IMG/VR virus record: IMGVR_UViG_3300032330_001647
Span: 1-51,413 of that record
Origin: a virus
Taxonomy: Duplodnaviria > Caudoviricetes
Strand: one strand, 5' to 3'
Length of the DNA stretch: 51,413 bases
Position numbers and translations under genes: made by a program. How positions within the stretch are numbered: the first letter of the stretch is position 1; each line of letters opens with the position of its first letter. This document shows, piece after piece, positions 12,396-38,676 of the stretch. The notes beneath the pieces were generated by a model. It was not told the origin of the DNA and ran no database searches. It worked only from the letters and a program-made list of their open reading frames with translations.

Positions 12396-12579
12396 AGAAA
12401 TTGCTATTTGGTGTGCATTAATCTTTTTGTTTTATTTATCTATTTCAAGTGTTGTCTTTGCACTTAGACATCCATGGGCAACTGATATGGAAAGATTTAT
12501 TCATATTGGTGACGCTTTAATGTTTAATAAGGTATCTTACAAAGAAATGAGAGGAGAATGTCAACAACCCCTAGGCTAA
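12367..12579 (+). CDS. small membrane protein, C-terminus altered by IS insertion
   Basis: one TM segment; last 6 codons come from the IS right end (reconstructed empty site ends ...RGEYEER*). Confidence 0.55.
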   Translation: MLNRITNLFKEIAIWCALIFLFYLSISSVVFALRHPWATDMERFIHIGDALMFNKVSYKEMRGECQQPLG

Positions 12580-12700
12580 AGCCATAGGGGCTTGTAATGC
12601 TGTTGCTTTCACAACAGGCTTACATACGATTGGCTGGTTGACGACAGCCTGCCCGTAAGTCAGGTAATTAGTCTGTGATACGGGAAGTTTGGACAATTTA
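12540..12700 (-). ncRNA. putative TnpB reRNA/omegaRNA (scaffold overlapping tnpB 3' end + flank-derived guide ATTCTCCTCTCATTTCTTTG); 5' limit approximate
   Basis: known TnpB architecture; nucleotide blocks conserved with copy 2 (TACATACGATTGGC, ACGGGAAGTTTGGA, terminal hairpin). Confidence 0.5.
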
Positions 12701-13737
12701 GCAATATTGATTGCCGCATTAATGTCCGCATCATAAATAAGTCCATTCTTAGAGTAAAATCTACAACCTCTTCTTTCTCCATCACGATTTCCAGTTACAC
12801 TATCAATCTGTGATGTATAATAAGGGCGAACTAGTAGAACCAATTTACCTTGATTCTCTGCCTTATAGCTTATTACTCTACGAAGTTCAAATATTGGAAC
12901 TTGTCCAATTGAACGCTTATTTTGATATTTATTATTTTTCTTTTTTATACCGACAAGATTTTCAAGCACGATTGTATCTGCTTCTGTGTTTAAAACTACA
13001 TTAGCAATCAAATGTGTTTGATTTCTATTTTTGTTAGATTCTTTATGTTTTAACTTACGAAGATGTCTTCTGGCACTTTTAGTGCTTTTGGATTTGAGAC
13101 TATCTTTTAAATGTCTCAATCTACGCTTATCTCCATTAAACTTTCTATCAATAATTATTCTACCATCACTACAAGCTGCATTACGACGAATGCCGATATC
13201 TACTCCTAAAGCGAGTTTTTGTTTTAATGGTTCTTTAGGTTTATTATCAAATGTAAATGATATAAATAATTTACCATCATTTTCATAAATTAGAGGATCT
13301 GTATATTCATATTTGTCCAATAATTCCTTTAGTTTAGGATACACTACAAATTTAAATGATTGTCTTCCAGAAGTAGTAGTTATACGGATTGAATATTTAT
13401 CAGTTTTGTTTTTTGAATAAAGTCTTTTATCTAAACGCATGGAAAGGTTTTTCTTTTCAATTGATTTTTTTAATCTGTGTTTATTTGACTTTGTAGATTT
13501 ATAACTTGATAAACATTCTTGTTCTGCTTTAATAATAACTTGTGATGGTATATTTGGATATTGTTTTCTAATGTTATTATAAACTTTAGAATGTAAAACT
13601 ACCAAACTATTTTTTGTTTCATTGAATTGATGTTGTGAAGCAAAATTAAATACAACTTTATGCATTTCAAGAATTGACTTTAAACTATCAAAGTCTTCTT
13701 GATTTTTCATTAAAAGTTGTGTATTATATGATATCAC
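12571..13737 (-). CDS. tnpB: RNA-guided endonuclease TnpB
   Basis: RuvC-I LGVDIG, RuvC-II IVLENL, RuvC-III DADINAAINI, YTSQ; GTG start. Confidence 0.9.
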   Translation of the reverse strand: MISYNTQLLMKNQEDFDSLKSILEMHKVVFNFASQHQFNETKNSLVVLHSKVYNNIRKQYPNIPSQVIIKAEQECLSSYKSTKSNKHRLKKSIEKKNLSMRLDKRLYSKNKTDKYSIRITTTSGRQSFKFVVYPKLKELLDKYEYTDPLIYENDGKLFISFTFDNKPKEPLKQKLALGVDIGIRRNAACSDGRIIIDRKFNGDKRRLRHLKDSLKSKSTKSARRHLRKLKHKESNKNRNQTHLIANVVLNTEADTIVLENLVGIKKKNNKYQNKRSIGQVPIFELRRVISYKAENQGKLVLLVRPYYTSQIDSVTGNRDGERRGCRFYSKNGLIYDADINAAINIAKLSKLPVSQTNYLTYGQAVVNQPIVCKPVVKATALQAPMALA

Positions 13738-13797
13738 TTCATATAAATATACACTATAAATACAAAAAGTGAAAAATAATGAAAAATATTTTTGTGG

Positions 13798-13826
13798 TTG
13801 ACAAAATCAAGCGGTCAATGTATATT
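13798..13826 (+). promoter_or_regulatory. outward-facing sigma70 promoter inside IS left end
   Basis: TTGACA-17 bp-TATATT with TG extension. Confidence 0.7.
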
Positions 13827-13891
13827 GATTACATAGTCGGAATTCCTCCCCTAGGTTAAAGCCGTAGGGGGTTTCCTTCCTCCAAAATAAT

Positions 13892-14086
13892 ATGAAGAGC
13901 GCTGATAATATTGTTGAATTAACAGATAAAGATATTAAAAAGTATACCAAGTTAAAAGAGGGTGAAAGTATCAAGTCTGATGATTTGGTTCATATTGAAG
14001 AAAATACCTATGCTAAACTAGGTAAAGGTAATATATTGTGTAAATCTACGGTAAACAAGTATAATACAATTTTGAGGGCAAAATGA
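13892..14086 (+). CDS. hypothetical protein
   Basis: 64 aa; ATG immediately abuts the IS left end. Confidence 0.6.
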   Translation: MKSADNIVELTDKDIKKYTKLKEGESIKSDDLVHIEENTYAKLGKGNILCKSTVNKYNTILRAK

Positions 14087-14424
14087 TTAAGTTGTTATTT
14101 GCATTGTCAATATTAGTATTTGTTTATATTATTGGTTGGCATCAAATTTACGGACAATTTATTAATTCATTTTATAAAAAATATGAAATGTGGTTGATAT
14201 GGTTAAGTGTGCCTAGTACATTGTTATCAATATATGCTACGAAATTATTAGCAGAATATTTTAATGGAAAAATGTGGCCAAATAGAATTTTTACATTTAG
14301 TATTGGCATAGTTATGTTTACAATATTGACACATATTTATTTTAATGAAAAAATAAGTGTTAAAACATTGACACTAATCGCATTAAGCGCATTAATAGTT
14401 ATATTACAAGTTTTGTGGAAATAA
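14083..14424 (+). CDS. 4-TM membrane protein (DMT/EamA-like)
   Basis: four hydrophobic segments, FNEKISVKTL loop. Confidence 0.55.
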   Translation: MIKLLFALSILVFVYIIGWHQIYGQFINSFYKKYEMWLIWLSVPSTLLSIYATKLLAEYFNGKMWPNRIFTFSIGIVMFTILTHIYFNEKISVKTLTLIALSALIVILQVLWK

Positions 14425-14427
14425 ATT

Positions 14428-14607
14428 ATGAATAATAAAATTGAAAAATTACCCAATGGTGACTTTAAAGTAGTATCTGAAATGGAAGAATGTATTGTAT
14501 GTGGGGTAGAAACAAATGAACCCAAAGACAAACATATAGACTTTCGTTATCACTATGTAGAAGGTGCTGGACAACTTTGCAGTAAATGTGCTGAAAAATA
14601 TGAATGA
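14428..14607 (+). CDS. small Zn-finger protein (59 aa, not in ORF track)
   Basis: CIVCG...YVEGAGQLCSKC. Confidence 0.6.
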   Translation: MNNKIEKLPNGDFKVVSEMEECIVCGVETNEPKDKHIDFRYHYVEGAGQLCSKCAEKYE

Positions 14608-14983
14608 ACTAAATAAACCAAATGCTTTTGTATTCAAAGCATTCATTGACGGTGAATACAGACTATGTGTATGTCCACGAATTGATAATAAGTGGAGTGA
14701 AGCTGACATTGTTTATATCAAAGATGACCCCTACAAAGAATTCGATGAAGTACTTGACAACAAGTTATTTAGTGTTATATTTGTAGGATATGAACCAGAT
14801 CCAAATGGATCAACAGGTTTTACAATAAAAAATGTTAACTCAAATTATATCAAGAGCGATACATCTATCGCTAGTGAAATGTATAACGAAGGATCATTTT
14901 TTACTACAATAGAGAAAGGATATCAACATTTTTATGAGCAACAATCAAGCCGGGAAGGGCTCGAAACAACGCCCAACCAATAA
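14600..14983 (+). CDS. hypothetical protein
   Basis: ATG 14600 overlaps the upstream gene end. Confidence 0.55.
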   Translation: MNELNKPNAFVFKAFIDGEYRLCVCPRIDNKWSEADIVYIKDDPYKEFDEVLDNKLFSVIFVGYEPDPNGSTGFTIKNVNSNYIKSDTSIASEMYNEGSFFTTIEKGYQHFYEQQSSREGLETTPNQ

Positions 14984-15047
14984 AAAACAATACGATAAAA
15001 ATTACGACGATATTTTTAGAAAAATAAAACCAAAAAAAGAATCTTAA
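14934..15047 (+). CDS. small basic phage protein (37 aa)
   Basis: AGKGSKQRP...YDKNYDDIF, a motif I recall from small phage proteins. Confidence 0.5.
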   Translation: MSNNQAGKGSKQRPTNKKQYDKNYDDIFRKIKPKKES

Positions 15048-15098
15048 AATATGACATAAATTACGATATAATAGTGCGTCAATCATATATATTATTAT

Positions 15099-15821
15099 AT
15101 GAACGCAAAAATTTATAAAATAACTAACTTACTAAATAATAAAATATATGTAGGACAAACACATTCTACATTAGAAAATAGGTTCAAAAAACATTATCGT
15201 GACAGCTCTGGAAAAAATCCAAAAAACATGCCAATTGTATTGGCTATAAAAAAGTATGGGATAAATTATTTTAAGATAGAACTCTTAGAAGAATTATCTA
15301 GTGATCTAACACAACTAGATGTAGATTTAAAAGAAAAATATTGGGGTTTAAAATTAAATTCTTTATCGCCAAATGGTTATAACTTAAAACTTGGTAATGG
15401 ACGGGGAATTCTATCGGAAGAAAGTAAATTAAAAATAAGCAAAATACATAAAGGAAAATTGGTAAGTGCGGAAACACGACTAAAAATTTCCAAATCAAAA
15501 AAAGGAATGAAACATTCGGTTGAATCAAAAAATAAAATATCACAAAATAACAGTAAATATTGGTTTGGAAAAAAAAGATCGACGGAAGACAGATTGAAAA
15601 TGTGTAAACCTAAAAAGAAGTATAAACATCATTTTGCTCGTCAAATTTTAGCAAAGTGTAACGATAAAAGTTATATATTTGAATCTGCACATGAAGCTTC
15701 AAAATCGAATGTTTTTGACAAAAAAATATATATTACAAATATTACGAATTGTTGTAAAATGAAAACGAAAACTGCTGGAAAAATTAATGGAATTCCAGTT
15801 ACGTGGTCGTTCTTAAATTAA
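15099..15821 (+). CDS. free-standing GIY-YIG homing endonuclease with NUMOD3 repeats
   Basis: KIYKITNLLNNKIYVGQT, PNGYNL, repeated SEESKLKIS/SAETRLKIS/HSVESKNKIS, C-terminal ITNCCK. Confidence 0.85.
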   Translation: MNAKIYKITNLLNNKIYVGQTHSTLENRFKKHYRDSSGKNPKNMPIVLAIKKYGINYFKIELLEELSSDLTQLDVDLKEKYWGLKLNSLSPNGYNLKLGNGRGILSEESKLKISKIHKGKLVSAETRLKISKSKKGMKHSVESKNKISQNNSKYWFGKKRSTEDRLKMCKPKKKYKHHFARQILAKCNDKSYIFESAHEASKSNVFDKKIYITNITNCCKMKTKTAGKINGIPVTWSFLN

Positions 15822-15826
15822 AGTGA

Positions 15827-16072
15827 ATGAAAAAAGTAATTCTTACCAAAATTGAATATGATTTTCTAATCGAATGCTTAGAAAAACTAGAGAAACATAC
15901 AGATGATTCCCCAGCAGATTCAAAATGGTTTGAAAAAATGGACACAACTCGTAGACTCTATGAATTAGAGATGGAACACTTTAATATCAAAAAATATGGT
16001 GCACCATCTACCAAATATCAAATGGTTAAGTGGCTACTAACAAAAGTTAAAACCAAATCACTTGACTTTTAA
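15827..16072 (+). CDS. hypothetical protein
   Basis: 81 aa ORF in operon. Confidence 0.55.
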   Translation: MKKVILTKIEYDFLIECLEKLEKHTDDSPADSKWFEKMDTTRRLYELEMEHFNIKKYGAPSTKYQMVKWLLTKVKTKSLDF

Positions 16073-16090
16073 TTGGTTAAATGTTATAGT
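16062..16090 (+). promoter_or_regulatory. sigma70 promoter, leaderless-type
   Basis: TTGACT-17-TATAGT, 5 nt to ATG 16096. Confidence 0.7.
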
Positions 16091-16095
16091 GGAAT

Positions 16096-16875
16096 ATGCT
16101 AAATTTTAATTCAGATAAAAAGAAGATTGTCATTGTTGCTGACCCACACAATGATTACAAAAAGCTAGATACAATCCTCAAAAAAGAAGATGGTGATATT
16201 AATATTTGTTTGGGTGATTGGTTTGATAGTTTTATATACGATGAACCACAACACTACGCAGATACCGCTAAGTATCTGTTAGAAGAGTTTTTACCAAATG
16301 AGAAGAACTATACTTTGTTTGGTAATCACGATATACACTATTTGTTTAATGCGCCTAGTGTATGGTGTAGTGGTTATGAACAATGGAAGTTTAATAGAAT
16401 CAATGATGTTATTGAAAAACATAGAGGTTATTTTCAACAGAAGTTTAATTGGGCTTGTGTTGTAGATGGCATTCTATTAACCCACGCTGGTTTGGATCAA
16501 CGATTAGTGTCTTCTACTTGTTCTACTAATGAGGATATTTTCAAATATCTTGATCAATGTAGTGATGAAGCTACAACCAAGTTAAAGAGTGATGATTTAC
16601 ATTGGTTTTATCAAGTTGGTAATAGTAGAGGTGGTAGGTTTAGAGCTGGTGGTATTGTTTGGTGTGATTTTGATCATGAGTTTAGTCCTATTGATGATTT
16701 GAAACAAATCGTTGGACATACTAGTCAATGGGAAACAGGTAGAGCTAAACAACACGATAGTGAGGGATTTATGAATCTTGCAGAGGCAAATAACATTTGT
16801 ATTGATTGTAATCTTAATCAGTATATTACTATTACAAATGGTAAGATTGAACTGAAAGATTACTATGATCTCTAA
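16096..16875 (+). CDS. calcineurin-like metallophosphoesterase
   Basis: ADPH, LGDWFD, GNHD, THAG, QIVGHT, CIDC. Confidence 0.85.
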   Translation: MLNFNSDKKKIVIVADPHNDYKKLDTILKKEDGDINICLGDWFDSFIYDEPQHYADTAKYLLEEFLPNEKNYTLFGNHDIHYLFNAPSVWCSGYEQWKFNRINDVIEKHRGYFQQKFNWACVVDGILLTHAGLDQRLVSSTCSTNEDIFKYLDQCSDEATTKLKSDDLHWFYQVGNSRGGRFRAGGIVWCDFDHEFSPIDDLKQIVGHTSQWETGRAKQHDSEGFMNLAEANNICIDCNLNQYITITNGKIELKDYYDL

Positions 16876-16901
16876 ATAAAACAACAGTGTAACAAATTGA
16901 T

Positions 16902-16942
16902 GAGGGATGTTACGTAACAGTGACATCTCTTGTTTTATTTTT
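16902..16942 (+). terminator. intrinsic terminator
   Basis: AGGGATGTTAC-loop-GTGACATCTCT stem (with G-U pairs) followed by T-rich tract. Confidence 0.55.
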
Positions 16943-16964
16943 AATATATGATATTTTAAAGTAT

Positions 16965-17162
16965 ATGGACGATCTTCAGATTACTTGCAACTATTGTGAT
17001 ATGCCAGCTAAATTAAAGCGGGATAAAATTTATATGCAGTGTCATTGTTGTGATGACCGTCGTATAATTGATCTTCGTGAGTATCTTTTAGAAGATAAAC
17101 ACCACGATTATTTATATTCTATGTTCAATGATAATTTTGTGTATAATGAAGCCAAAGCTTAA
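16965..17162 (+). CDS. small Cys-rich hypothetical protein
   Basis: CNYC, CHCC; ATG 16965. Confidence 0.55.
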   Translation: MDDLQITCNYCDMPAKLKRDKIYMQCHCCDDRRIIDLREYLLEDKHHDYLYSMFNDNFVYNEAKA

Positions 17163-17191
17163 TAGTTATACTTAACGAAAGGTATAACATT

Positions 17192-17419
17192 ATGTCAGGT
17201 CTTTATTTAGGAATCAAAACACAAAATCCAGTAGTTGGAATCACAAGTACCAATCCAGGCACAGCAAACGCTATGTTAGCTGCCCAACAAATGGCACAAG
17301 CACAACAAGATCAACAAACCGCTAAACAAGTTGATCCACGTTGGAGCAATCAAGCACCAACAGTTGTACATGAAATGCCATGGCACAAAGCACATCCTGG
17401 TTTGAAGAACGTTCAATAA
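17192..17419 (+). CDS. Gln-rich hypothetical protein
   Basis: 75 aa, GAAAGG upstream, followed by a terminator. Confidence 0.55.
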   Translation: MSGLYLGIKTQNPVVGITSTNPGTANAMLAAQQMAQAQQDQQTAKQVDPRWSNQAPTVVHEMPWHKAHPGLKNVQ

Positions 17420-17444
17420 TTTTATTTGTTTGTTTATTCATCAT

Positions 17445-17472
17445 ACCCCACAGTAAAATGTGGGGTTTTTTG
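17445..17472 (+). terminator. intrinsic terminator fused to next -35 box
   Basis: ACCCCACA-GTAAAA-TGTGGGGT + T tract, then TTGACT 17474. Confidence 0.8.
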
Positions 17473-17508
17473 TTTGACTATTTAAAAATGTAATGTAAAC
17501 TAAAATAT

Positions 17509-18075
17509 ATGGATCTCGACGCTAAAAAAATCAACGAAAGCTTAGAAAAAGCAGAAGCTACTTCTTTAGAACCATGGTATAGAACCAATAAATATGGTGA
17601 TTGGATATTGGATCATATTGCCTATGGATGGCGTATCTATTACAAGTATTATGATGTAAAGCGTTGGTTTATTAGTACCTATCAACGTATGCGTTATGGT
17701 GTAAGTGATAGTGAATGTTGGAGTTTAGACTATACGTTTACAAAATTCATTCTTCCTAGACTAAAGCATTTCAAAAAGATTAATGTTCATACACATCCCC
17801 CACAGGTTACACCTGAAGAATGGGACAAAATCTTGGATGAATTGATTTGGACATTCGAATATATGGAAGATGTAGAAAAGTTCAATCCAATGCCTCCGGT
17901 TATGTATGTACGTCTTGGTAATATGGATGATTACTTTAAAAATATTAACCGTGAAAAAACCCCAGAACAAAAACAAGCTTGGGCTGAATATCTGAAGAAA
18001 AATGAAGAACTAGAAGAACGTCGTAAAAAGGGAATGTTATTGTTCGCTGAATATTATTCCCAACTTTGGGATTAA
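17509..18075 (+). CDS. conserved phage hypothetical protein
   Basis: CWSLDYT...LPRLKHFK...EWDKIL...LFAEYYSQLWD; promoter TTGACT-16-TAAACT at 17474-17501. Confidence 0.65.
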   Translation: MDLDAKKINESLEKAEATSLEPWYRTNKYGDWILDHIAYGWRIYYKYYDVKRWFISTYQRMRYGVSDSECWSLDYTFTKFILPRLKHFKKINVHTHPPQVTPEEWDKILDELIWTFEYMEDVEKFNPMPPVMYVRLGNMDDYFKNINREKTPEQKQAWAEYLKKNEELEERRKKGMLLFAEYYSQLWD

Positions 18076-18079
18076 CTGT

Positions 18080-18592
18080 ATGAATGAATTTGAAAATTAT
18101 AAAACTCCTAGTTTTGATGAACTATTCATGCGAATGGTTTATTTGACGGCTACTAAAAGCAAAGATCCATCTAGTAAAATAGGAGCCGTGATTGTTAAAG
18201 ATAATCGTGTTATTAGCACCGGTTATAACGGATTTCCAATTGGAGTATTAGATTCAGAAGAACGTTACAATAATAGAGAAACAAAGTATAAATTTGTAGT
18301 ACACGCAGAACATAATAGCATATTGACCGCAGCTAGATTCGGTATATCCACATTAGGATCAACACTTTATACAAACGGGTTGCCATGCAACAATTGTATG
18401 AAGTCTATAATACAGAGTGGTATTAATGAAATTGTAATTCATTCTTTATGGCCAGAAATGAAACATTCAGATTGGGAAGATTTATCTAAGGTATCTAAAA
18501 CTATGATGGAAGAATCCGGTCTTAAACTTAGAATTTTTGATGGTAAACTAAATTTAAATGGATTTTTGAACGGAAAAGTGTTTGACATTTAA
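18080..18592 (+). CDS. dCMP deaminase
   Basis: SKDPSSKIGAVIV, TGYNGFP, HAEHN, PCNNC. Confidence 0.9.
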   Translation: MNEFENYKTPSFDELFMRMVYLTATKSKDPSSKIGAVIVKDNRVISTGYNGFPIGVLDSEERYNNRETKYKFVVHAEHNSILTAARFGISTLGSTLYTNGLPCNNCMKSIIQSGINEIVIHSLWPEMKHSDWEDLSKVSKTMMEESGLKLRIFDGKLNLNGFLNGKVFDI

Positions 18593-18616
18593 AAAAAGGT
18601 GTGGTAGACTGTTCAT

Positions 18617-18829
18617 ATGATCAATAATAATGAGTTGTTTGCTAAGGTACTGGCTGAAAATCCTCTTCCGTACCATTTTGGCGACAAGGTAAATACTAAC
18701 CGTGGTATTGGTTTTATCAGTGGTTATAACTTCAAGGACCGTGAAAAGACTTGGAAGTTTACTATTCGTCCATTTGGATTGACTAATTATTATACAGATG
18801 TTGAAACTGTATATGGAAAGGTAGAATAA
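18617..18829 (+). CDS. hypothetical protein
   Basis: promoter TTGACA-17-TAGACT 6 nt upstream of ATG. Confidence 0.6.
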   Translation: MINNNELFAKVLAENPLPYHFGDKVNTNRGIGFISGYNFKDREKTWKFTIRPFGLTNYYTDVETVYGKVE

Positions 18830-18832
18830 ATT

Positions 18833-18994
18833 ATGGAATTTGAATCAAATGCAGATATTCTAAGAGATTTAATGAATCAACTACATACATTACATAAAGA
18901 AAATGCTAGGTTGATTCAAAAAATTGAAGATTTAGAGAAACACAATGAAGAACTTAACCGTAAGTTAAAGAGTATTCAAGCATTATTTCTATGA
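18833..18994 (+). CDS. small coiled-coil protein (53 aa, not in ORF track)
   Basis: heptad pattern LHKENARLIQKIEDLEKHNEELNRKL; ATGA overlap with next gene. Confidence 0.55.
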   Translation: MEFESNADILRDLMNQLHTLHKENARLIQKIEDLEKHNEELNRKLKSIQALFL

Positions 18995-19161
18995 AAATCT
19001 TTTTAGCATTTTTTATTAATTTGGCAGTATCATTGCTTACAAGCCTATTACTTTATAAGTTGTTTAAAGTGGATGTATCACCCACAATTATTTCTATTGG
19101 ATTGATCGTTGCGTATATGTGTTTACCACAACGATTTCACGATTGGATTGCTGAAAAATGA
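18991..19161 (+). CDS. small 2-TM membrane protein (56 aa, not in ORF track)
   Basis: MKIFLAFFINLAVSLLTSLLLY...IISIGLIVAYMCL. Confidence 0.5.
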   Translation: MKIFLAFFINLAVSLLTSLLLYKLFKVDVSPTIISIGLIVAYMCLPQRFHDWIAEK

Positions 19162-19162
19162 T

Positions 19163-19369
19163 ATGAACATTCACGTTCCAGAAGAAATTAAAGCTAAATA
19201 TCCTCATATGGAATTTAGGGGTAAACAGCGTATACTAAATGACAGAACTGTGATTGAAGCATATAACAATGCTACTAATCAAACTTTTCATTATAGTTTC
19301 GACGAAGACTTTTTTTGGTTTGCGGGACAAATTCCAGACTACAAACTTCCAAAAAGTATCTTGACTTAA
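19163..19369 (+). CDS. hypothetical protein
   Basis: ATG 19163 directly after upstream stop. Confidence 0.55.
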   Translation: MNIHVPEEIKAKYPHMEFRGKQRILNDRTVIEAYNNATNQTFHYSFDEDFFWFAGQIPDYKLPKSILT

Positions 19370-19394
19370 TATAAATCTTTGGTAATCTGGACTT

Positions 19395-19916
19395 ATGAGT
19401 GAACAAACATATATGAACCTAAAAGATGCAGTAAAGCGTCCTGTACTCAGTGAGAAGACTGTTAACCGTTCTAACAAGGCATTTGTTAGGATGGTTGATA
19501 GCTACCAGAAATGGAATGAGTCTATCAGTGCTGATGAGCCACGTGAGACATATGAAGATGACATTTTTAATTGTCTCTTTGAATATGACTTGGATGGTTA
19601 TAATTTGGCAGAATATCTAAAATCTAAGGTTAATCTTGCCTTTTGTGATGCTGAACTTGTAGATATTTTGGATGATATGATCTATGTCAAGAAGTCTTTA
19701 GAAGATGAAATGTTGAAGCAATGGGTTAAGGAGAACTTCTTGACCATTCCAGATGATGTAATTGGTAAGAAAGTTAATGCCAAACAAGGTTATAAGAAGT
19801 ATGAAAATCACTATATTACCACTATCAGACCGGACACTTATGAAGTAACTATCAGTGATAATATTAATAAAAAGGGTGGTTATATAGTTGGATTTGAAAA
19901 TGTAACTTTTCTATGA
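19395..19916 (+). CDS. hypothetical protein
   Basis: 173 aa; promoter TTGACT-16-TAATCT 6 nt upstream of ATG. Confidence 0.65.
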   Translation: MSEQTYMNLKDAVKRPVLSEKTVNRSNKAFVRMVDSYQKWNESISADEPRETYEDDIFNCLFEYDLDGYNLAEYLKSKVNLAFCDAELVDILDDMIYVKKSLEDEMLKQWVKENFLTIPDDVIGKKVNAKQGYKKYENHYITTIRPDTYEVTISDNINKKGGYIVGFENVTFL

Positions 19917-20245
19917 AAGACACTAGTGTCATTCCCAAGGGAGATTATTGTTACACTTGGAAAGAAGTTCCTAGTGAAAGTAACAACTATCGTGGTAAAG
20001 TAAATTACTGTCCATACTATGATGTAAAAAATGTCAATGGTGTGGAATTTCCGTGGTGTAATTATCTTGAACAAGGAGGAATACCCAATTCAGATAATTG
20101 GAAGGGATGGGATAATTATGATAGTGCTGAAAAAGTATTGATTGAACATTTTGGAAGTGAGGAAACTATGGATGAAAAACTATCTTTATTTCTACTATTT
20201 GATAGTTGCAAAGAATGTGGCGTAAATGTTGAAGAAGAAAGTTGA
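19913..20245 (+). CDS. Cys-containing conserved phage hypothetical protein
   Basis: IPKGDYCY...CPYY...LLFDSCKECGVN. Confidence 0.6.
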   Translation: MKDTSVIPKGDYCYTWKEVPSESNNYRGKVNYCPYYDVKNVNGVEFPWCNYLEQGGIPNSDNWKGWDNYDSAEKVLIEHFGSEETMDEKLSLFLLFDSCKECGVNVEEES

Positions 20246-20275
20246 CTTTCTGTAAAGTTGTGGTAAATTGGGTGT

Positions 20276-21370: not shown

Positions 21371-21401
21371 AACCCCCACTATTAATTTAGTGGGGTTATT
21401 T
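21369..21401. terminator. bidirectional terminator between convergent genes
   Basis: CCCCACTA-TTAATT-TAGTGGGG flanked by A/T tracts. Confidence 0.7.
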
Positions 21402-21406
21402 GTTTA

Positions 21407-21721: not shown

Positions 21722-21858
21722 ATATTTCCTTTCTTTACGTAACCACCATTGATTACTTCATACATATATACCACATCAATCACACCAAATAAACATCTTT
21801 TACTTCCCCTTTACAATTTTCTCTTGACTTTATAACAAGCAGATGTTAATATACACAT

Positions 21859-22954: not shown

Positions 22955-22960
22955 GAATAC

Positions 22961-23507: not shown

Positions 23508-23520
23508 TAAAACAAAACAT

Positions 23521-25488: not shown

Positions 25489-25526
25489 TTGACTTTGTTT
25501 AAACTACGTGATATAGTTAAGGAGTA

Positions 25527-28238: not shown

Positions 28239-28273
28239 CTTTTTATAAAGCTGGTGGTAGTATGGATCTTGTA

Positions 28274-28660: not shown

Positions 28661-28701
28661 GTTGACTTTTTTTAAAATCTGAGTTAGAATAGTAACGTAA
28701 T

Positions 28702-30987: not shown

Positions 30988-30991
30988 TAAT

Positions 30992-31903
30992 ATGTCTTAC
31001 ATTTCACTGGATCAGTTTGAGAAACATTTGAAGTTTGATAACAAGTCTGATGTTACTGTTGTAGCATCACCTTTTGTGTCTTTTATATCCGATCATAAAC
31101 AATATGGGTATAATACTCTTCGTGAAGAGGAGTCATTTAGTATTAAAAATAAATGTAATAATATTATTATCGATATCGTTGATGGTAAAATTTATCCAAA
31201 ATCAAAGATTTCCCATTCATATCGTTGGTTTATACATGCGGTTTCTTTATTGAAAAAAGGAGGCGACTTGAAGGTGAGAATGCCTAGTAATATCATTCCA
31301 AAACTTTCATCATCCTCTTCTGGAACTGGCTTTGTTAAATCAAAGACACTTGATAACATCAATGTACATCACATTTATATTGACGGAGAATATTGTATGG
31401 TACATTTGACAAAACAAAAGAGTCGAGGATCTACAGTTGTAGAATACAGCACAGGTGAAAAATTGACAATGCCTTCCAATAAACTTGTAGTATTGAATCG
31501 ATATGTTAAGAGTCACTATGATTATCTATCTACTGTAGATGATAGTACCAGTTTTGAATATCAAGCCACTAATGGTCAACGCGGATACAAAATTGGTCAG
31601 ACTTTTAAACAACAGTTTGAACATTTCTGTGGAAAACGTTGGAATAAGGACTGTGTGGTTGTAAAGTCTAACGGTGGTCGTCCGTGTGGTATCGAAACAT
31701 ATGAAGAGGTCAATGATACACCCACTACCCGTGATGTGTTTTATTTGAAGAATAAAAATAACGTAAAAATTATCAAACGTAAATTTGAAAATCCAAATTT
31801 TGTTGATTTCGCTAACAATCTGAGTTACAATCACTTTGGATCTCTTTGTACAATGTACAAGAAGCTTCTTTTTAATGAGAAGATTCTAACCGTAGATTTT
31901 TAA
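30992..31903 (+). CDS. hypothetical protein, possibly degenerate Eco57I-type MTase / specificity subunit
   Basis: YRWFIHAVSLLKKGGDLKVRMPS resembles the post-NPPY region of N6-MTases, but no FxGxG or NPPY is visible. Confidence 0.4.
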   Translation: MSYISLDQFEKHLKFDNKSDVTVVASPFVSFISDHKQYGYNTLREEESFSIKNKCNNIIIDIVDGKIYPKSKISHSYRWFIHAVSLLKKGGDLKVRMPSNIIPKLSSSSSGTGFVKSKTLDNINVHHIYIDGEYCMVHLTKQKSRGSTVVEYSTGEKLTMPSNKLVVLNRYVKSHYDYLSTVDDSTSFEYQATNGQRGYKIGQTFKQQFEHFCGKRWNKDCVVVKSNGGRPCGIETYEEVNDTPTTRDVFYLKNKNNVKIIKRKFENPNFVDFANNLSYNHFGSLCTMYKKLLFNEKILTVDF

Positions 31904-31906
31904 TAT

Positions 31907-32557
31907 ATGAATGAAGCGCTATTAAACCATTTCAACGTCGATGCAAATGAACTTGATGTTTCTAATAAAAATGTCAAGTCGTTTGTAGTGGCAGAAACAC
32001 CTTTCAAAACAATTAGAGATTTTGTTGAGAAGTGGCATTATTCTAAAACTGTAAAGGGATTACATTGTACTCTTTACTTTGGACTATTTAGTGAAGGAAG
32101 TCTAATCGGAGCAATGATGTATGGCAAATTGGCAATGCCGGGAGTTTATAAGAAATATGTAGATAATGAAGATGAATTAATTGAACTACGCAGATTGTGT
32201 TGTATCGATAAAACTCCACGAAATACAGAATCATATTTTGTAGGTAAAACAATCAAATGGATAAAAAACAATACTAAGATTAAAAAGATCATTAGTTATG
32301 CTGATCCTCATTATGGACATCAAGGTATAATTTATAAAGCATCCAATTTTCAATATTTAGGCGTTACCTCCCCAGGTAGATATATTATTGACAAAGATGG
32401 TAATAGAAAACATGATAAAACTATTCGTAATAGTGATGTTATTGATGGTGTACGTGTATTTCGCAAACACGCAATTGAGTTGAAAGAACAACTTGACAAA
32501 GGTGAAGCTAGGTACATCGTTACTCCAGGCAAACATATATACCTTTATACACTTTAA
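31907..32557 (+). CDS. Mom-family DNA modification protein (GNAT fold)
   Basis: KWHYS, FGLF..LIGAMMYG, ELRRLCC, PRNTESYF, ISYADP..GHQGIIYKASNF.YLG. Confidence 0.8.
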   Translation: MNEALLNHFNVDANELDVSNKNVKSFVVAETPFKTIRDFVEKWHYSKTVKGLHCTLYFGLFSEGSLIGAMMYGKLAMPGVYKKYVDNEDELIELRRLCCIDKTPRNTESYFVGKTIKWIKNNTKIKKIISYADPHYGHQGIIYKASNFQYLGVTSPGRYIIDKDGNRKHDKTIRNSDVIDGVRVFRKHAIELKEQLDKGEARYIVTPGKHIYLYTL

Positions 32558-32603
32558 AAATAGATTGACTTCTAAGAAGATTCGTGGTAATCTTATAAAA
32601 GAT

Positions 32604-33707
32604 ATGAAACTACCTATGTTATTCGCTCGTACAAATACGGGTGCTATCCAAACTTGGACCATTGAAGTTGATGGCAACAAGTATCGTACTCACTACGGTC
32701 AGCTTGATAGTGATAAAATTCAAATCACTGAATGGACTCTTTGTGAGGGTAAAAATACTGGCAAGAAGAATGCTACTTCCGCAGAAGATCAAGCTGCAAA
32801 AGAAGCAAAAGCCACTTGGAAGAAAAAGAAAGAAAGTGGTTATTTTGAAAACATTACTGACATTGATGGATTCAGCTTTACTGAACCAATGTTGGCTAAG
32901 AACTATGATGACTATAAGGATGAATTGAAGTATCCTGTATATTCGCAAATTAAAATGGACGGGATAAGATCTATTGTCAAGAAAGATGGTATGTGGAGTC
33001 GTAATGGCAAACCTATTGTTTCAGCTCCTCACGTACTAGTTGCGTTGAAACCTTTCTTTGATATGTTCCCATCAGCAATTCTTGATGGTGAATTGTATGC
33101 TGATAAGTTTGCAAATGATTTTAATGCTATTTGTAGTTTAGTAAAGAAGACTAAGCCTACACCAGAAGATTTGGTTGAGAGTGCAAAGAATATTCAATAT
33201 TGGGTTTATGATTGGATTGTATCATCAAAAACTTTTAGTGATCGTAATGCTGATATTACTACTTACGTTGCTAATAACAATGTGATTCGTCGTGTTCCGA
33301 CTCACCTTGTGGACACGATTACACATTTAAATGAGTTGTATGAAAAGTATATTGATGAAGGATACGAAGGTCAGATGGTTCGTACAGATGGACCATACGA
33401 AAACAAACGCAGCAAATACCTGCTTAAACGTAAGGAGTTTCAAGATTCTGAATTCAAGATTCTTGATATTGTTGAAGGGGTAGGTAACAAGAGTGGTATG
33501 GCTGGATATATGGTATTCAAGAACCATAAAGACATTGAGTTCCATAGTAATATTAAAGGAACCAGGGAATATTTGAAGGAACTATTGAAGAACAAAAATA
33601 AACTCATTGGAAAGAGTGCTACGGTGAAGTATTTTAATCTTACACCCGATGATGAAATTCCACGCTTTCCTTTTGTGATTAACATTGACCGTGAGAGTTA
33701 CGAATAA
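32604..33707 (+). CDS. ATP-dependent DNA ligase
   Basis: PMLA, KMDGIR, LDGELY, YEGQMVR, YENKRS..LLKRK, PRFP; ATG 32604 after promoter 32565-32593. Confidence 0.92.
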   Translation: MKLPMLFARTNTGAIQTWTIEVDGNKYRTHYGQLDSDKIQITEWTLCEGKNTGKKNATSAEDQAAKEAKATWKKKKESGYFENITDIDGFSFTEPMLAKNYDDYKDELKYPVYSQIKMDGIRSIVKKDGMWSRNGKPIVSAPHVLVALKPFFDMFPSAILDGELYADKFANDFNAICSLVKKTKPTPEDLVESAKNIQYWVYDWIVSSKTFSDRNADITTYVANNNVIRRVPTHLVDTITHLNELYEKYIDEGYEGQMVRTDGPYENKRSKYLLKRKEFQDSEFKILDIVEGVGNKSGMAGYMVFKNHKDIEFHSNIKGTREYLKELLKNKNKLIGKSATVKYFNLTPDDEIPRFPFVINIDRESYE

Positions 33708-34570
33708 GCAATCCAATTATTTAAACAATAGTCAAATGCCTCATCAACGGTCCTCATTTTGATTCCGGTTGACAACAATTTTTCGTTGCTCATTACACAA
33801 TTTGATCTGGGGGTTTTAACTACATTCTTATAAAATTCTTCTTCTTCAACAAACATAAATGTTTTATTTTTAGCAATTGTTTGTTTGAATTTTTCGGTGA
33901 TACCTTTGGTGGTAATATATCCACCATTGGTAACATTATAGATACCATATGGCACTTTCTTTGTTAGAGTTTGAATACAAGCACTCACAAACTCTTGTTT
34001 ATTGCTCACACTATTCTCACTATCCAATAATCGATCATATTTTAAAATCTTACTGATATAGTTTCTGGAGTTATCAAACTCTTCAAACGGAGCACGTAAC
34101 CTCCAAATGTAACTCTTTTGCCACTTACCAACAATGGTTTCAGCTATAACTTTGGTACCACTATAGAAACTACTGTTATTATATTTAAAACTAAAGTTTG
34201 GTTCGTCTTGTTCTGTGAAAGGAGTACCATCAATTCTTCTACCCTCATAAATACATCCACTAGATACATGACCCAGTGGAATATCGTGTAGTTCACACCA
34301 ATTGGTTAATACTTGAGGCCAAACAATGTTTCCATGAACTGTATCTTCTTTGTTTTTTTCACACGCATCTACATTTGGCTTGCCAGTATATCCGGCCGCA
34401 TTAATCACATAATCAATTTGTGGACGATTTTCGTTTAAAAACCAATCTTCTAAGTCTTTGAATGTGGTTTTGTGGGTGTTTTGCCAACAAAAAACAGGCA
34501 ACTTTAAATTTGTTAATTGTTTTTTGAACTCACTACCGATGTAACCGTTTGACCCAAATAATAATATCAT
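33698..34570 (-). CDS. dTDP-4-dehydrorhamnose reductase (RmlD)-like SDR
   Basis: GSNGYIG, NAAGYTGKPNVDACE, SSGCIY, YSGTK, PRSNC. Confidence 0.85.
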   Translation of the reverse strand: MILLFGSNGYIGSEFKKQLTNLKLPVFCWQNTHKTTFKDLEDWFLNENRPQIDYVINAAGYTGKPNVDACEKNKEDTVHGNIVWPQVLTNWCELHDIPLGHVSSGCIYEGRRIDGTPFTEQDEPNFSFKYNNSSFYSGTKVIAETIVGKWQKSYIWRLRAPFEEFDNSRNYISKILKYDRLLDSENSVSNKQEFVSACIQTLTKKVPYGIYNVTNGGYITTKGITEKFKQTIAKNKTFMFVEEEEFYKNVVKTPRSNCVMSNEKLLSTGIKMRTVDEAFDYCLNNWIAYS

Positions 34571-34654
34571 AAACTATTTAACAATAACTATGAGTGTATA
34601 TTTGAAATTAATTTTTATATTGACAGCGAACAAAAATGGATGTATACTTTTAAT

Positions 34655-34888
34655 ATGGAAGTAGAACTAACAACTAAAAATAAAGTAAGCAACCCCATCA
34701 TTATTCAACACGATGATCTAAAGTTTGATGGTAAAACCATCACTATTCCAGGTTATTATGTTGGTGTACTTTTGGAATATGTTAAAGATTATAAGCTTGA
34801 TGGAGTACCTCAAGTAGATATTGAAGATTATCAGTCATTTCGTAATTTTCTCTATGATATAGAGGAATACAAAAATCGAGGACACTAA
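34655..34888 (+). CDS. hypothetical protein
   Basis: promoter TTGACA-17-TATACT (34620-34648) 6 nt upstream of ATG 34655. Confidence 0.6.
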   Translation: MEVELTTKNKVSNPIIIQHDDLKFDGKTITIPGYYVGVLLEYVKDYKLDGVPQVDIEDYQSFRNFLYDIEEYKNRGH

Positions 34889-34891
34889 GTT

Positions 34892-35083
34892 ATGAATGAA
34901 AGTAAATTGAAGTCTGCTAGAGTTGTACTTGACATTGAATGGGAATGTGTAGATGATAGTGATCTACCTTCATTGTGGGATTGGAAACGAATTAAAATGC
35001 CTATGGATCTAACCAAGGTAAAGTATGTTGGTATTCATACACAAAATGGACCAGAGAATGTAAGTGATTGGATGGGTAATTAA
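34892..35083 (+). CDS. hypothetical protein
   Basis: 63 aa in operon. Confidence 0.5.
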   Translation: MNESKLKSARVVLDIEWECVDDSDLPSLWDWKRIKMPMDLTKVKYVGIHTQNGPENVSDWMGN

Positions 35084-35088
35084 ATTAT

Positions 35089-35277
35089 ATGACTATTGTA
35101 AAGAAATTAGATATTGTTGACTGGCTTAAAACCGCCGTGGAAAAGAAGATGATTAAGGAATTGAATATTCCTAATGCTAAGGTATATCTTAGCTGTGATC
35201 GTCCTCATCCTGATGTAATTCTTGAAACAAAGAATGCTGACGGCGATCTACAAATTGTACGGTTTCTAATTATATGA
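35089..35277 (+). CDS. hypothetical protein
   Basis: 62 aa in operon. Confidence 0.5.
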   Translation: MTIVKKLDIVDWLKTAVEKKMIKELNIPNAKVYLSCDRPHPDVILETKNADGDLQIVRFLII

Positions 35278-35372
35278 ATGATAATACACTGTATTATAGT
35301 TTGTGTTTTATTGGATTGATACTAATGATTAGTGGATTCTTTATTCTTACTAAAGATAATGACAACCAATAA
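35274..35372 (+). CDS. tiny single-TM protein (32 aa)
   Basis: ATGA overlap; LYYSLCFIGLILMISGFFIL. Confidence 0.4.
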   Translation: MNDNTLYYSLCFIGLILMISGFFILTKDNDNQ

Positions 35373-35556
35373 ATTTTTCTTAACACTAGCCAGAACCATT
35401 GATCATCGTGTAGGTCATACAGATGAATGTAAGCCTGATGTGCCTGTATTGCCTGTAAATTATGCACTTGCTAGTTTTTCCTTGAGGTTTATCATTGTTC
35501 TGGTAAACTTTATTACATGCGCTTTCATTATCGCAAACATTATACATCACTGGTAA
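35359..35556 (+). CDS. small membrane protein
   Basis: C-terminal TM segment ending FIIANIIHHW. Confidence 0.55.
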   Translation: MTTNKFFLTLARTIDHRVGHTDECKPDVPVLPVNYALASFSLRFIIVLVNFITCAFIIANIIHHW

Positions 35557-35566
35557 AAAAATAATT

Positions 35567-36436
35567 ATGAGCAAACAAAATAAAAATAAAAAAGCAAATA
35601 ACATTGGTACGGGAATGCATACTACGACTTATTTGTCTCAACAATACGTAAAGAGTGACTACAAGAAACGATTAACTCTTCGAGAAATTGTGGAGAATCA
35701 AGAAAAGCATATGATGTTGATCCCACGATCAGAAGAGGATCAATCATACATTGAAGAGCTTGAAGCTTCAATTGTCAAAGATATTCCTGATGAAGTTATA
35801 TTAAAGAAATGTGAGGCGTATTTTACTCGGGAGTATAGAGATGATATTAAATTAGATGAAGAAAAAATTAGTAAAATTTTTGAACAAAAGTATTGTGTTC
35901 GCAAGACAGATGAAAAAATAGATGTTAAAAAAGCGTATGATGCACTATTTGATAAAAATCACGTAGAGCCTGAACCTGAAATTGAACCTCATACTTCAGA
36001 TCAAAAGTTAAATTTGCGGTGTCATTGTCACAACTGTAACGGTAATTTTCCATTGAGAAATCTTAAATGGGTTGATATTGGTGTAAAATCAATACCTTCA
36101 TTTTTTGATGCAGAAACTCCCCAGGATTTATTAGATTGGTGTACTAAAGACAGAAGTAACTTTGATGCGGTTCGTAAATTGATGGAAGGAAAGAAAATTT
36201 CAGTTGAAATGTTTAATACTAAAAATACAGAATTAATTGAAATTATTAAGAAAGCAAAGTCTAATAAAGACGCAGAGGTTTACAATACTTTATCAAAAAA
36301 TGATAAGTATTATGGTATTCGACCAATGTGTGCTAAATATCCAATATGTCCTTCTTCTTGGTCAGTTTTTGATCTATGGTTAAAGAAAGAACAGTATAGT
36401 CTGGAAGATCATAAGAAAGGTAAATATGACTACTAA
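35567..36436 (+). CDS. hypothetical protein
   Basis: 289 aa, CHCHNC motif; no family recognised. Confidence 0.65.
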   Translation: MSKQNKNKKANNIGTGMHTTTYLSQQYVKSDYKKRLTLREIVENQEKHMMLIPRSEEDQSYIEELEASIVKDIPDEVILKKCEAYFTREYRDDIKLDEEKISKIFEQKYCVRKTDEKIDVKKAYDALFDKNHVEPEPEIEPHTSDQKLNLRCHCHNCNGNFPLRNLKWVDIGVKSIPSFFDAETPQDLLDWCTKDRSNFDAVRKLMEGKKISVEMFNTKNTELIEIIKKAKSNKDAEVYNTLSKNDKYYGIRPMCAKYPICPSSWSVFDLWLKKEQYSLEDHKKGKYDY

Positions 36437-36623
36437 CAAACCAAAGTATTATCTAACAGTTAATCTACCGCAAAATTTTGATGAGGTAGATGTAGATGCC
36501 ATTAAAGCAGATTTAATGGCTTATATCAACAGCAAGAACCAATATGGGGCTATGTATGGTCCCAAGTCACATAAAAAAGGAATTACTGTTGATAAAGTAA
36601 TGTACAGAACCAATGAAGACTAA
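36426..36623 (+). CDS. hypothetical protein
   Basis: 65 aa overlapping neighbours. Confidence 0.5.
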   Translation: MTTNKPKYYLTVNLPQNFDEVDVDAIKADLMAYINSKNQYGAMYGPKSHKKGITVDKVMYRTNED

Positions 36624-36852
36624 CAAAGAATTAGTTAATAGACTAAGAGAGTTTACAAATAATAATTGCAATGTATCTATTGATCCCAAGCTGTGTGAAG
36701 ACATTCGTTATCTATGTGATGAAGTGGAACGATTTAGTCGAGAAATGGTACGAGTTAACGATCACATGGATGCTGACCATATTACTATTCAACGTTATAA
36801 AAATAAACTCGAAAAATGTCAACTGAAATTATCTAATTATGAACCGTTTTAA
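36613..36852 (+). CDS. hypothetical coiled-coil protein
   Basis: 79 aa overlapping neighbours. Confidence 0.5.
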   Translation: MKTNKELVNRLREFTNNNCNVSIDPKLCEDIRYLCDEVERFSREMVRVNDHMDADHITIQRYKNKLEKCQLKLSNYEPF

Positions 36853-37087
36853 TAAGATTATGTTGGGTAGTCTAGCAGCAATTATGTTGACTGCTATGAC
36901 AATAGATCCGCCAAAGATTAAAGTATATCTAATTATGTCATATAGAGGTAATGATTTAGCAATTGAGAAGGTATATCTCAAGAAAGAAAATGCTGAAAAA
37001 TATCGTGATATGTACAAAGAAAGTCATAATTATTCAGTAGAAGAACGTGAGTTAACAGAGTCAACTACCCCTAGGCTAAAGCCGTAG
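36839..37087 (+). CDS. hypothetical protein, C-terminus extended by IS insertion
   Basis: reconstructed empty site ends ...ELTE-TGA overlapping the next ATG; STTPRLKP comes from the IS right end. Confidence 0.6.
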   Translation: MNRFNKIMLGSLAAIMLTAMTIDPPKIKVYLIMSYRGNDLAIEKVYLKKENAEKYRDMYKESHNYSVEERELTESTTPRLKP

Positions 37088-37200
37088 GGGCTTGTAAGAC
37101 TTCCCTACTAGCAGAAGATTTACATACGATTGGCGAATTGACTGTCGCCTGTCCATCAAGTATGTTGCCATACGAAACGGGAAGTTTGGAACGATTTCCT
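37040..37200 (-). ncRNA. putative TnpB reRNA with flank-derived guide TCTGTTAACTCACGTTCTTC; 5' limit approximate
   Basis: known TnpB architecture; nucleotide conservation with the copy 1 right end. Confidence 0.5.
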
Positions 37201-38231
37201 ATGTTCCTAGATGCATTTAGGTCTGCATCATACACAATTCCACTTAGAGCATAAAACCTACAACCTCTACGAACTCCCTCTTTGATACCACTAAAGCTAT
37301 CAATTTGAGAAGTATACGCAGGGCTAACTAGAATTACGGATTTACCCATATTTTCTGCCTTGTATGTTAATATGCGTCTTAATTCAAATAATGGAACTTG
37401 ACTTATTGCTCTTTTGTTTTGAAATTTGTGTTTCTTTGCTTTGATACCTTTGAGATTTTCTAATACAATCGTATCACAATTTGTTTTAAGAATCTCATTA
37501 GCCACGCAATGTGTTTGATTTTTATTCTTATTAGCTTCTTTATGTCTCAATTTGAGAAGATGTCTTCTAGCACTCTTGGTGCCTTCGGATTTAAGACTAT
37601 CTTTTAGATGACGAAGTTTGCGTTTATCACCATTAAACTTTCTATCAATGATGATTCTACCATCACTACAAGCCGCTACTCTACGCATTCCTAAATCAAC
37701 GCCCAATGCAAGCTTTGATTTTTGTTTTTCAATTTTATTATCAAACGGTAAAGAAATGTAAATTTTATTATCATTGACATAAAGCAGAGGATCTGCGTAT
37801 TTGTATTTGTATTTGTTTAGTAGTTCTACTAGTTTTGGATATAACTTAAATTTGAAATGTTTTTTTCCACTTGAGGTGGTGATTTTTATTGATTTGTTTG
37901 TGGGAAAACTATACAATCTTTTGTCTAAGCGAATTGAAAGATTTTTCTTTTCAATCGGTTTCTTTATCTTGTGTTTATTTGATTTAGCAGACCTATACAT
38001 TGCCAAACATTCTTGTTCCGCCTTAATAATAACTTGAGAATTTATTTCCGGAAATTGTTTTCTTGTTGGGTGATAAACTTTTGAGTGGAGAATTACTATT
38101 GAATTCTTTTTCTCATTGAATTGTTCTTTTGATGCGATATTAAATACAACACGATGACTTTCAAGAATAGATTTGAGAGAATCTAAATCTTCTTGATTGT
38201 CGGTTAACAATTCTGTGTTGTAAGTTATCAC
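37071..38231 (-). CDS. tnpB: RNA-guided endonuclease TnpB
   Basis: LGVDLG, IVLENL, YTSQ, DADLNASRNI; GTG start at 38231 by homology with copy 1. Confidence 0.9.
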   Translation of the reverse strand: MITYNTELLTDNQEDLDSLKSILESHRVVFNIASKEQFNEKKNSIVILHSKVYHPTRKQFPEINSQVIIKAEQECLAMYRSAKSNKHKIKKPIEKKNLSIRLDKRLYSFPTNKSIKITTSSGKKHFKFKLYPKLVELLNKYKYKYADPLLYVNDNKIYISLPFDNKIEKQKSKLALGVDLGMRRVAACSDGRIIIDRKFNGDKRKLRHLKDSLKSEGTKSARRHLLKLRHKEANKNKNQTHCVANEILKTNCDTIVLENLKGIKAKKHKFQNKRAISQVPLFELRRILTYKAENMGKSVILVSPAYTSQIDSFSGIKEGVRRGCRFYALSGIVYDADLNASRNIGNRSKLPVSYGNILDGQATVNSPIVCKSSASREVLQAPTALA

Positions 38232-38303
38232 TTCTATAATATATATACACCGGATTTTCAAAAAGTGAAAAAATTTATAAAAAAATGATTTTGGAGAAAA
38301 TAT

Positions 38304-38332
38304 TTGACATAGTGGGATAGTTGATGTAAAGT
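38304..38332 (+). promoter_or_regulatory. outward-facing sigma70 promoter inside IS left end
   Basis: TTGACA-17 bp-TAAAGT with TG extension; same position as in copy 1. Confidence 0.7.
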
Positions 38333-38394
38333 GGTTGAATGGTCGGAATTCCTCCCCTTGGCTAAAGCCGAAGGGGTTTCCTTCCTCCAAGAAT

Positions 38395-38676
38395 ATGAAA
38401 AAGAAACAAATTCCAGTGTGTCAGAAAGTTGAACTAGACAAATGTCCAAGTTGCAAAGTAGATGCTGGTAAAAAACATAAAAATAGGTGTGATATAGAAC
38501 GTTGTAGTGTTTGTGGTGGTCAGTATGTTAGTTGCAAATGTGAACAACACGATAAACAATTTGCATATTGGAATGGATTTACTCCTGAATTTCTTATATC
38601 TAAAGCACTAAACTTAGATATCAATACATTTTATTTAATTGGAATGCATAAAATATTTTTTATTAAACCATCCTAA
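38395..38676 (+). CDS. Cys/His-rich Zn-binding phage protein
   Basis: CPSC...H...CDIERCSVCGGQ..SC.C..HD; ATG abuts the IS left end. Confidence 0.65.
   Translation: MKKKQIPVCQKVELDKCPSCKVDAGKKHKNRCDIERCSVCGGQYVSCKCEQHDKQFAYWNGFTPEFLISKALNLDINTFYLIGMHKIFFIKPS

Follow-up and report, generated by a model that had tools for sequence, protein, structure and literature searches.

Two tnpB elements set backwards before start codons in a probable jumbo phage: target motif, likely purifying selection and a predicted outward promoter

Why should transposable elements lie backwards directly before the start codons of their neighbours? The question is raised by a 51-kb virus record (IMG/VR record IMGVR_UViG_3300032330_001647; the window, as used here, is this whole stretch of 51,413 nucleotides), in which two IS200/IS605-type elements carrying tnpB lie on the minus strand at 12560-13891 (copy 1) and 37060-38394 (copy 2). 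The two have hairpin ends in common; as an initial annotation of the sequence had described, their left ends follow TTCAT and their right ends close with TTGAC. We consider the following joint account probable. A guide in the left end sets TTCAT as the target and the elements sit backwards before ATGAA starts because the target motif mirrors ATGA; the surviving copies are found at gene starts most likely because insertions within genes have been purged; and an outward-facing promoter motif in the left end likely re-drives the displaced gene.

The ends themselves are well defined. Within the window a 24-nt motif of the right end is found at two places, and in none of 100 shuffles, and subterminal hairpins, by which tnpB-only members of the IS200/IS605 family are recognised, are present at both ends of both copies, with stability z-scores of about -1.4 to -2.2 at three ends and 0.08 at the left end of copy 1, which carries one mismatch. 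An IStron was considered and rejected, as Rfam gives no match in the window and hence no group I intron, and just ~155 nt separate the left end from the tnpB start. At the guide and cleavage site of IS608, pairing also takes in the fourth base. The IS608 sites are TTAC and TCAA, with a left guide AAAG whose first two bases pair with the second and first cleavage bases while the third base stays unpaired (PMC3201880). The same rule, as the initial annotation had proposed, leads here from GAAA to TCAT at the left end and from CAAG to TGAC at the right end, and both guides lie at hairpin feet. Left ends were then collected with search patterns that do not contain TCAT, giving 107 viral and 117 cellular left-end-like sequences among the matches listed, a scope that applies to all viral and cellular counts below. 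A hairpin filter is passed by 93 and 66 of these, and the predicted TCAT is found at a distance of 12-18 nt from the guide in 87/93 and 48/66, mostly as TTCAT (73 of the 87 viral and 42 of the 48 cellular ends). The close subfamily of the window elements comprises 47 distinct sites, 44 with TTCAT and 3 with TTCAC; two further left ends with neither were set aside.

Ends, guides, target and exact junctions can thus be read directly from the sequence, while the chemistry has to be borrowed. A related record, G005, holds an element with the same ends and a Y1 TnpA (PF01797, E 9e-36); tnpA is missing from the elements of the window, itself a 51-kb fragment. We take this autonomous sister, with its divergent tnpA and tnpB, to have an IS605-like layout. 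By analogy with IS608, a TnpA of this kind would act in trans, peeling off the element as a single strand and pasting it 3' of TTCAT.

Insertion 3' of a fixed tetranucleotide without target duplication is exact at copy 1 and at a further element, L429, which is a clean insertion when set against the empty L418; at copy 2 each junction is exact, but the two are not adjacent. Excision of copy 1 had been predicted to restore GAGAAT/ATGAAG (the slash marks the insertion point), with the upstream gene ending in YEER and a stop codon, and precisely this allele occurs in 15 of 21 relatives. The remaining six lack the small upstream gene, and five of these six close a cREC gene on the same ATGA. This small membrane gene (12367-12559 in the window) is absent from L160 and L172-L176, and one of the breaks falls exactly at the ATG of the copy 1 insertion. 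The Shine-Dalgarno (SD)-like GAGGAG previously noticed before this ATG is probably incidental, since it lies 3 nt from the ATG within RGE codons and is missing in 6/21 relatives with the same ATG. Protein searches at two G005 insertions gave no usable empty site, the loci compared for 25 further two-ended elements contained no empty allele, and a search with the protein encoded downstream of copy 2 (the MKKKQ gene) for copy 2 empty alleles returned one weak locus.

How far the elements favour gene starts depends on what they are compared with. The ATG opens an open reading frame (ORF) of 45 or more codons, our proxy for a start, at 58/86 viral and 31/48 cellular sites, as against approximately 30% and 34% of flanking ATGAA sites. 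Enrichment over all TTCAT sites is strong both in the close family (30/47 versus 1405/4965, p 4e-7) and for viral sites as a whole (p 6e-14). The bias to gene starts that had been claimed is therefore real, whereas its supposed restriction to phages is not, given the share of 31/48 in cellular genomes. With a gene-caller background, 4964 TTCAT sites divide into 522 starts, 293 non-coding sites and 4149 disruptive ones; the ORF criterion is satisfied by 28% of all TTCAT sites and by 66% of the non-disruptive ones (538/816). The observed start share of 64-67% is indistinguishable from this non-disruptive share (p 0.76, 0.82 and 0.88, the first being the two-sided value for the close family, for which alone the five-phage background is matched). 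As there is no excess over non-disruptive sites, selection can account for the start bias without a targeting strategy. The TTCAT motif provides the starts, and purifying selection is enough to explain the remainder; statistically, the surviving sites match the non-disruptive portion of TTCAT sites, two thirds of them starts. Where ORFs could be matched they are mostly true starts. Of 14 viral ORFs with an informative PHROG match, 10 align from the profile start, 1 internally and 3 ambiguously (44/58 have no match). Among the cellular ORFs, NCBIfam profiles match 11, of which 10 align N-terminally, MurD, Mre11/SbcD and MutT among them (20/31 have none). The MurD case is the cellular L372, in which the insertion lies directly before a MurD-like start codon; the MurD gene is normally essential. 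The start bias is thus real but foreseeable, and is not phage-specific.

The next question is how the gene behind the element might still be expressed. Of the 1243 genes called in these phages just 99 have an SD-like 4-mer, where a control window gives 49. Native starts are A-rich with T at -1 in 66%, and promoter motifs of the TTGAC type, found 227 times versus 81 in shuffled genomes, are most frequent 6-9 nt ahead of the native ATG. The position of this peak suggests that phage messages are often leaderless. The tip of the left end places AA(A/G)AAT before the host ATG, with T at -1 in 39/47 close-family sites. Further inside, at a fixed place, an outward TTGACA-17-TAnnnT, like the promoters that the phage itself has, with at least 10 of 12 matches is present in 34 of 44 close-family left ends, and it marks this subfamily (13/14 close ends versus 6/67 other viral and 0/35 cellular ends). 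Across 31 dereplicated ends the TTGACA and the A2 and T6 of the -10 are 70-90% conserved, whereas most spacer columns reach 30-60%. In the autonomous G005 copy the -35 is spelled by the final tnpA codons (YIDNQG and stop) and the -10 follows the stop; the motif therefore arose from the tnpA 3' end. The motif is also kept in two lone left ends, G002 near 142986, which presumably precedes a CoaD-like gene (named from its N-terminus), and G004 near 260726, as well as in a G005 copy that has lost its hairpin. A native promoter-like motif is stranded past the right end in 3/26 two-ended sites. We regard the outward motif as a predicted promoter that likely re-drives the displaced gene: in SD-poor phages with many leaderless sigma70 promoters, TTGACA-17-TAnnnT together with an A-rich tip ending in AAT would replace what the insertion cut off.

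Other roles for the left end were considered. An SD is supplied by the tip in 0/47 close-family sites, compared with 7/73 viral and 12/48 cellular ones, and a stop-free reverse frame of 250 or more codons running to the host ATG is found in 0/23 full close-family elements, compared with 7/20 other viral tnpB elements. TCAT-type tnpB elements with a reverse frame of ~400 codons open up to the junction are L049, L053, L056, L075, L092, L105, L108 and L110. Antisense control of tnpB by the outward promoter was rejected because the two motifs face away from each other and no overlap is predicted between their transcripts. The message of copy 1 tnpB is itself probably near-leaderless, judging from its own upstream motif.

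Copy 2 presents a different picture. Its excision had been thought to recreate a classic stop/start overlap, but none of 17 relatives joins the upstream gene directly to the MKKKQ gene. In 16/17 the right-end junction is instead followed by the ATGAA of another, lipoprotein-like gene, and in 15/17 a second gene follows, so that the MKKKQ start lies 457-472 bp further on. Within this two-gene block ATGAA sites occur solely at the three gene starts, and both breaks of copy 2 fall exactly at ATGAA starts; the block was not found elsewhere in the window. As relatives hold two genes between exact ATGAA breaks, copy 2 stands, by this comparison of sequences, in place of two whole genes, from start to start. 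The loss may have been made by the element, either because TnpA joined its right end to another TTCAT or because two copies recombined with each other, although this is a single case.

The most serious competitor concerns this deletion step alone, namely that the two genes were lost first, through ATGAA microhomology or phage mosaicism, and that the element then inserted cleanly. Microhomology between one ATGAA and another would yield the identical product, gene-content differences between the window and G005 are many, and the small gene upstream of copy 1 is itself present or absent at that ATG in element-free relatives (6/21). We nevertheless think loss first unlikely, while taking it seriously, given that both breaks match TnpA target sites to the base and that an element-free deleted allele is found in 0/17 relatives. 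That the outward motif should be only a leftover of the tnpA 3' end, without a function of its own, and the downstream genes read through or dispensable, is in our judgement quite unlikely. Such a relic would fit the encoding of the G005 -35 in terminal tnpA codons, the 10 of 44 ends (about a quarter) without a 10-of-12 motif, and the occurrence of other branches at starts without any motif. It fits less well with the loss or frameshift of tnpA in most ends, from which the hexamers and the 17-nt spacing have nonetheless survived, with a -10 that lies beyond tnpA and keeps its A2/T6 pattern, or with the persistence of the motif in three copies after tnpB, right end or hairpin had gone.

Active safe-harbour targeting, by which the element would be steered to gene boundaries and chiefly to ATGA overlaps, in phages specifically and beyond what motif and selection provide, seems very unlikely. 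The enrichment over all TTCAT sites given above speaks for it, as does the rank of TTCAT, 31st of 1024 pentamers, for non-disruptive sites; but that enrichment leaves no excess over non-disruptive sites, and cellular genomes show the same share. As a safe harbour, moreover, TTCAT turns out to be only modestly safe. Some 84% of its sites lie inside genes and its safe share of 16.4% is in effect no higher than the 16.1% of TTTAT (average 9.6%; TTGAT 7.1%), TTGAC is as safe, and TCAT ranks 14th of 256, just under TTAT. The ten ATGA positions listed in support of the idea do all carry ATGA, yet stop/start overlaps, which are found at 155/1243 called genes, make up only 3 of the 15 start-like two-ended sites; one of the 15 sites is an internal Met. 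Several points also weigh against the account that we prefer, of a guided target, purged in-gene insertions and a re-driven gene. Gene starts are scored by a proxy only, and the background was computed on five phage records with a simple gene caller of our own. One close-family site at least (L011) is an internal Met of a disrupted gene, and usable empty alleles were available for only three insertions, two clean and one a replacement. Presence of the promoter and start position are unlinked within the subfamily (21/34 with it, 6/10 without; Fisher p 1.0), conservation of the -35 may partly reflect inheritance from tnpA, and genome snapshots cannot separate selection alone from a mild active preference.

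Both TnpBs have an intact RuvC D-E-D triad by alignment and score above the NF040570 cut-off (copy 1: 122.5 bits, cut-off 100), and that of copy 2 is 69% identical to that of copy 1. In the predicted fold of the last 160 nt, 16/36 pairs show two-sided changes across 9 sequences, as would be expected if a structured omega-RNA covered the 3' end of tnpB and reached to the right end of the element; an Rfam scan of this region gave no match. The initial annotation had TnpB cutting alleles free of the insertion in co-infecting relatives, and such alleles with TTCAT and a perfect guide match are indeed available, in 15/21 relatives for copy 1 (19-22 nt) and 8/17 for copy 2 (20-25 nt). Cleavage of the element-free donor joint is reported for Geobacillus elements (10.1101/2023.03.14.532601), and cleavage of element-free alleles is discussed in PMC10691335. 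TnpB with its omega-RNA would, by analogy, cut element-free alleles, which would favour retention or homing between co-infecting phages; at copy 2, repair of such a cut from the filled allele would also remove the two genes.

The same ends enclose a variety of cargo. The 912-bp L022:2495-3406 (the same as L404) has a 223-amino-acid ORF on the opposite strand in place of tnpB; it has no Pfam match, and we take it from its motifs to resemble a phage HNH-type homing endonuclease. L020, L414 and L424 are gene-less derivatives of 149-361 bp, and G002:216392-216438 is a mini element of 47 bp after TTCAT, with left and right ends fused through a common hairpin. Within single genomes (G002, G004), tnpB lineages ~40, 50, 67 and 84% identical to copy 1 have near-identical ends, which may reflect either an exchange of tnpB genes between shells or the maintenance of the ends by TnpA.

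The target itself is already known. Kapitonov et al. 2016 (PMC4810608) describe N/ATGA, with empty sites, for ISC and tnpB-only IS605B elements, and a TTCAT transposon-adjacent motif (TAM) is shown for the IscB of ISGst5 (Meers et al., 10.1101/2023.03.14.532601). Like the window elements, IS605B and ISC elements such as IS605B-1_MA of Microcystis insert exactly 5' of ATGA without duplication and with empty sites, carry tnpB opposite the ATGA strand and have subterminal palindromes (PMC4810608); that tnpB and iscB elements share ends is reported there and found in the present collection too. Those elements are cellular, whereas the window ends make up a separate subfamily of jumbo phages in which an outward promoter motif is present. 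The words 'codon' and 'intergenic' are absent from the main text of that paper, and with them a start-codon reading. The ISGst5/ISGst2-type elements, as presented in 10.1101/2023.03.14.532601, resemble ours in the TTCAT motif, in the pairing of TAM and guide, in an orientation bias of IscB relative to neighbouring genes and in a flexible choice of right end. They differ in that Geobacillus pairs TTCAT with IscB while TnpB2 uses TTTAT, where we predict TTCAT for TnpB, and in that TnpB overall is reported to lack an orientation bias, where the window branch runs antisense to the gene at whose start it sits. The Helicobacter pylori element IS608, in the texts of PMC3201880 and PMC5027513, shares the hairpin ends, the 4-nt guides 5' of the hairpin foot, a cleavage site read by pairing with the third base unpaired, and the absence of target duplication; its target is TTAC and its right end TCAA, in contrast to the TCAT and TGAC of the window copies, which are without tnpA. 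A literature search, with subscription papers and supplements outside its scope, found no statement that elements of the family dock at start codons, carry an outward promoter in the left end or make deletions from start to start.

The coordinates of both elements and of the adjoining host genes are collected in Table 1.

Table 1. Parts of the two tnpB elements and the host genes flanking them, in window coordinates.
Feature	Position	Strand	Basis or remark
Copy 1, tnpB-only, non-autonomous IS200/IS605 element, 1332 bp	12560..13891	-	clean insertion, target duplication absent; empty allele in relatives
tnpB of copy 1, 388 amino acids, GTG start, RuvC triad D179/E259/D338 intact	12571..13737	-	NF040570, PF07282, alignment
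Copy 1 right end: guide CAAG 12594-12591, hairpin 12590-12568, cleavage tetranucleotide TGAC 12563-12560	12560..12594	-	
Copy 1 predicted omega-RNA scaffold, which takes in the 3' end of tnpB; the flank past 12560 would serve as guide	12560..12720	-	covariation
Copy 1 left end: A-rich tip, outer stem, guide GAAA 13875-13872, hairpin 13871-13848	13848..13891	-	
Copy 1 target and predicted TAM TTCAT, the ATGAA start of a 64-amino-acid host gene at 13892-14086 (+)	13892..13896	-	
Copy 1 outward sigma70-type promoter motif TTGACA-17-TATATT, aimed at the host ATG	13798..13826	+	11/12 matches, best site in region
Copy 1 putative weaker tnpB promoter motif, -10 TATATT ending 8 nt before the GTG	13746..13775	-	9/12 matches
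Small membrane-protein-like host gene, last residues YEER swapped for right-end-derived CQQPLG	12367..12579	+	
Copy 2, tnpB-only element, 1335 bp, in place of the 457-472 bp two-gene block of relatives	37060..38394	-	
tnpB of copy 2, ~386 amino acids from the aligned GTG, RuvC triad intact	37071..38231	-	alignment, profile search
Copy 2 right end: guide CAAG, hairpin, TGAC	37060..37094	-	
Copy 2 left end: tip, guide GAAA 38380-38377, hairpin 38376-38354	38354..38394	-	
Copy 2 target and predicted TAM TTCAT, the ATGAA start of the 93-amino-acid MKKKQ host gene at 38395-38676 (+)	38395..38399	-	
Copy 2 outward promoter motif TTGACA-17-TAAAGT	38304..38332	+	hairpin distance as in copy 1, spacer differs
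Host gene upstream of copy 2, whose native end is an ATGA overlap; in the window it runs on for 8 residues within the right end	36839..37087	+	

The gene content of the window is of phage type (thymidylate synthase, NAMPT, DNA ligase and RNA ligase), and the window is probably a piece of a jumbo phage, because records sharing its elements reach 296-369 kb. Matches to named phages are distant only and do not point to a host. Gene-content insertions and deletions relative to G005 are frequent. On the minus strand at 45147-51308 lie two long repeat-rich genes, one with an S74 chaperone domain, which are probably tail fibres; sulfotransferase and glycosyltransferase genes adjoin them. At 25493 in the window and at G001:295603, a terminator-like hairpin with a TTGAC promoter motif directly after it is kept in both phages.

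The features that we consider worth following are the outward promoter motif, found subfamily-wide, and the single start-to-start replacement. A bolder picture, which we think rather doubtful, would make of them a start-codon editing drive in jumbo phages: the element would swap in its own phage-type promoter at ATGAA starts, TnpA would delete whole modules precisely from start to start, TnpB homing would carry the edited allele into co-infecting relatives, and left ends, once decayed, would persist as domesticated phage promoters. More immediately, the clade offers many intact TnpBs, in 683 clusters at E 1e-60 or better, for which TTCAT is the predicted TAM, and the published N/ATGA motif now has a measured effect, with some two thirds of surviving insertions at starts in phages and cells alike, as selection on TTCAT predicts. 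A promoter would be one way in which a backwards insertion at a start is tolerated, where other branches have an SD or a read-through frame. Should the replacement at copy 2 be the work of the element, a transposon that targets the start codon would provide a concrete mechanism for the gene-boundary-precise mosaicism and the scattered promoters of large phages.

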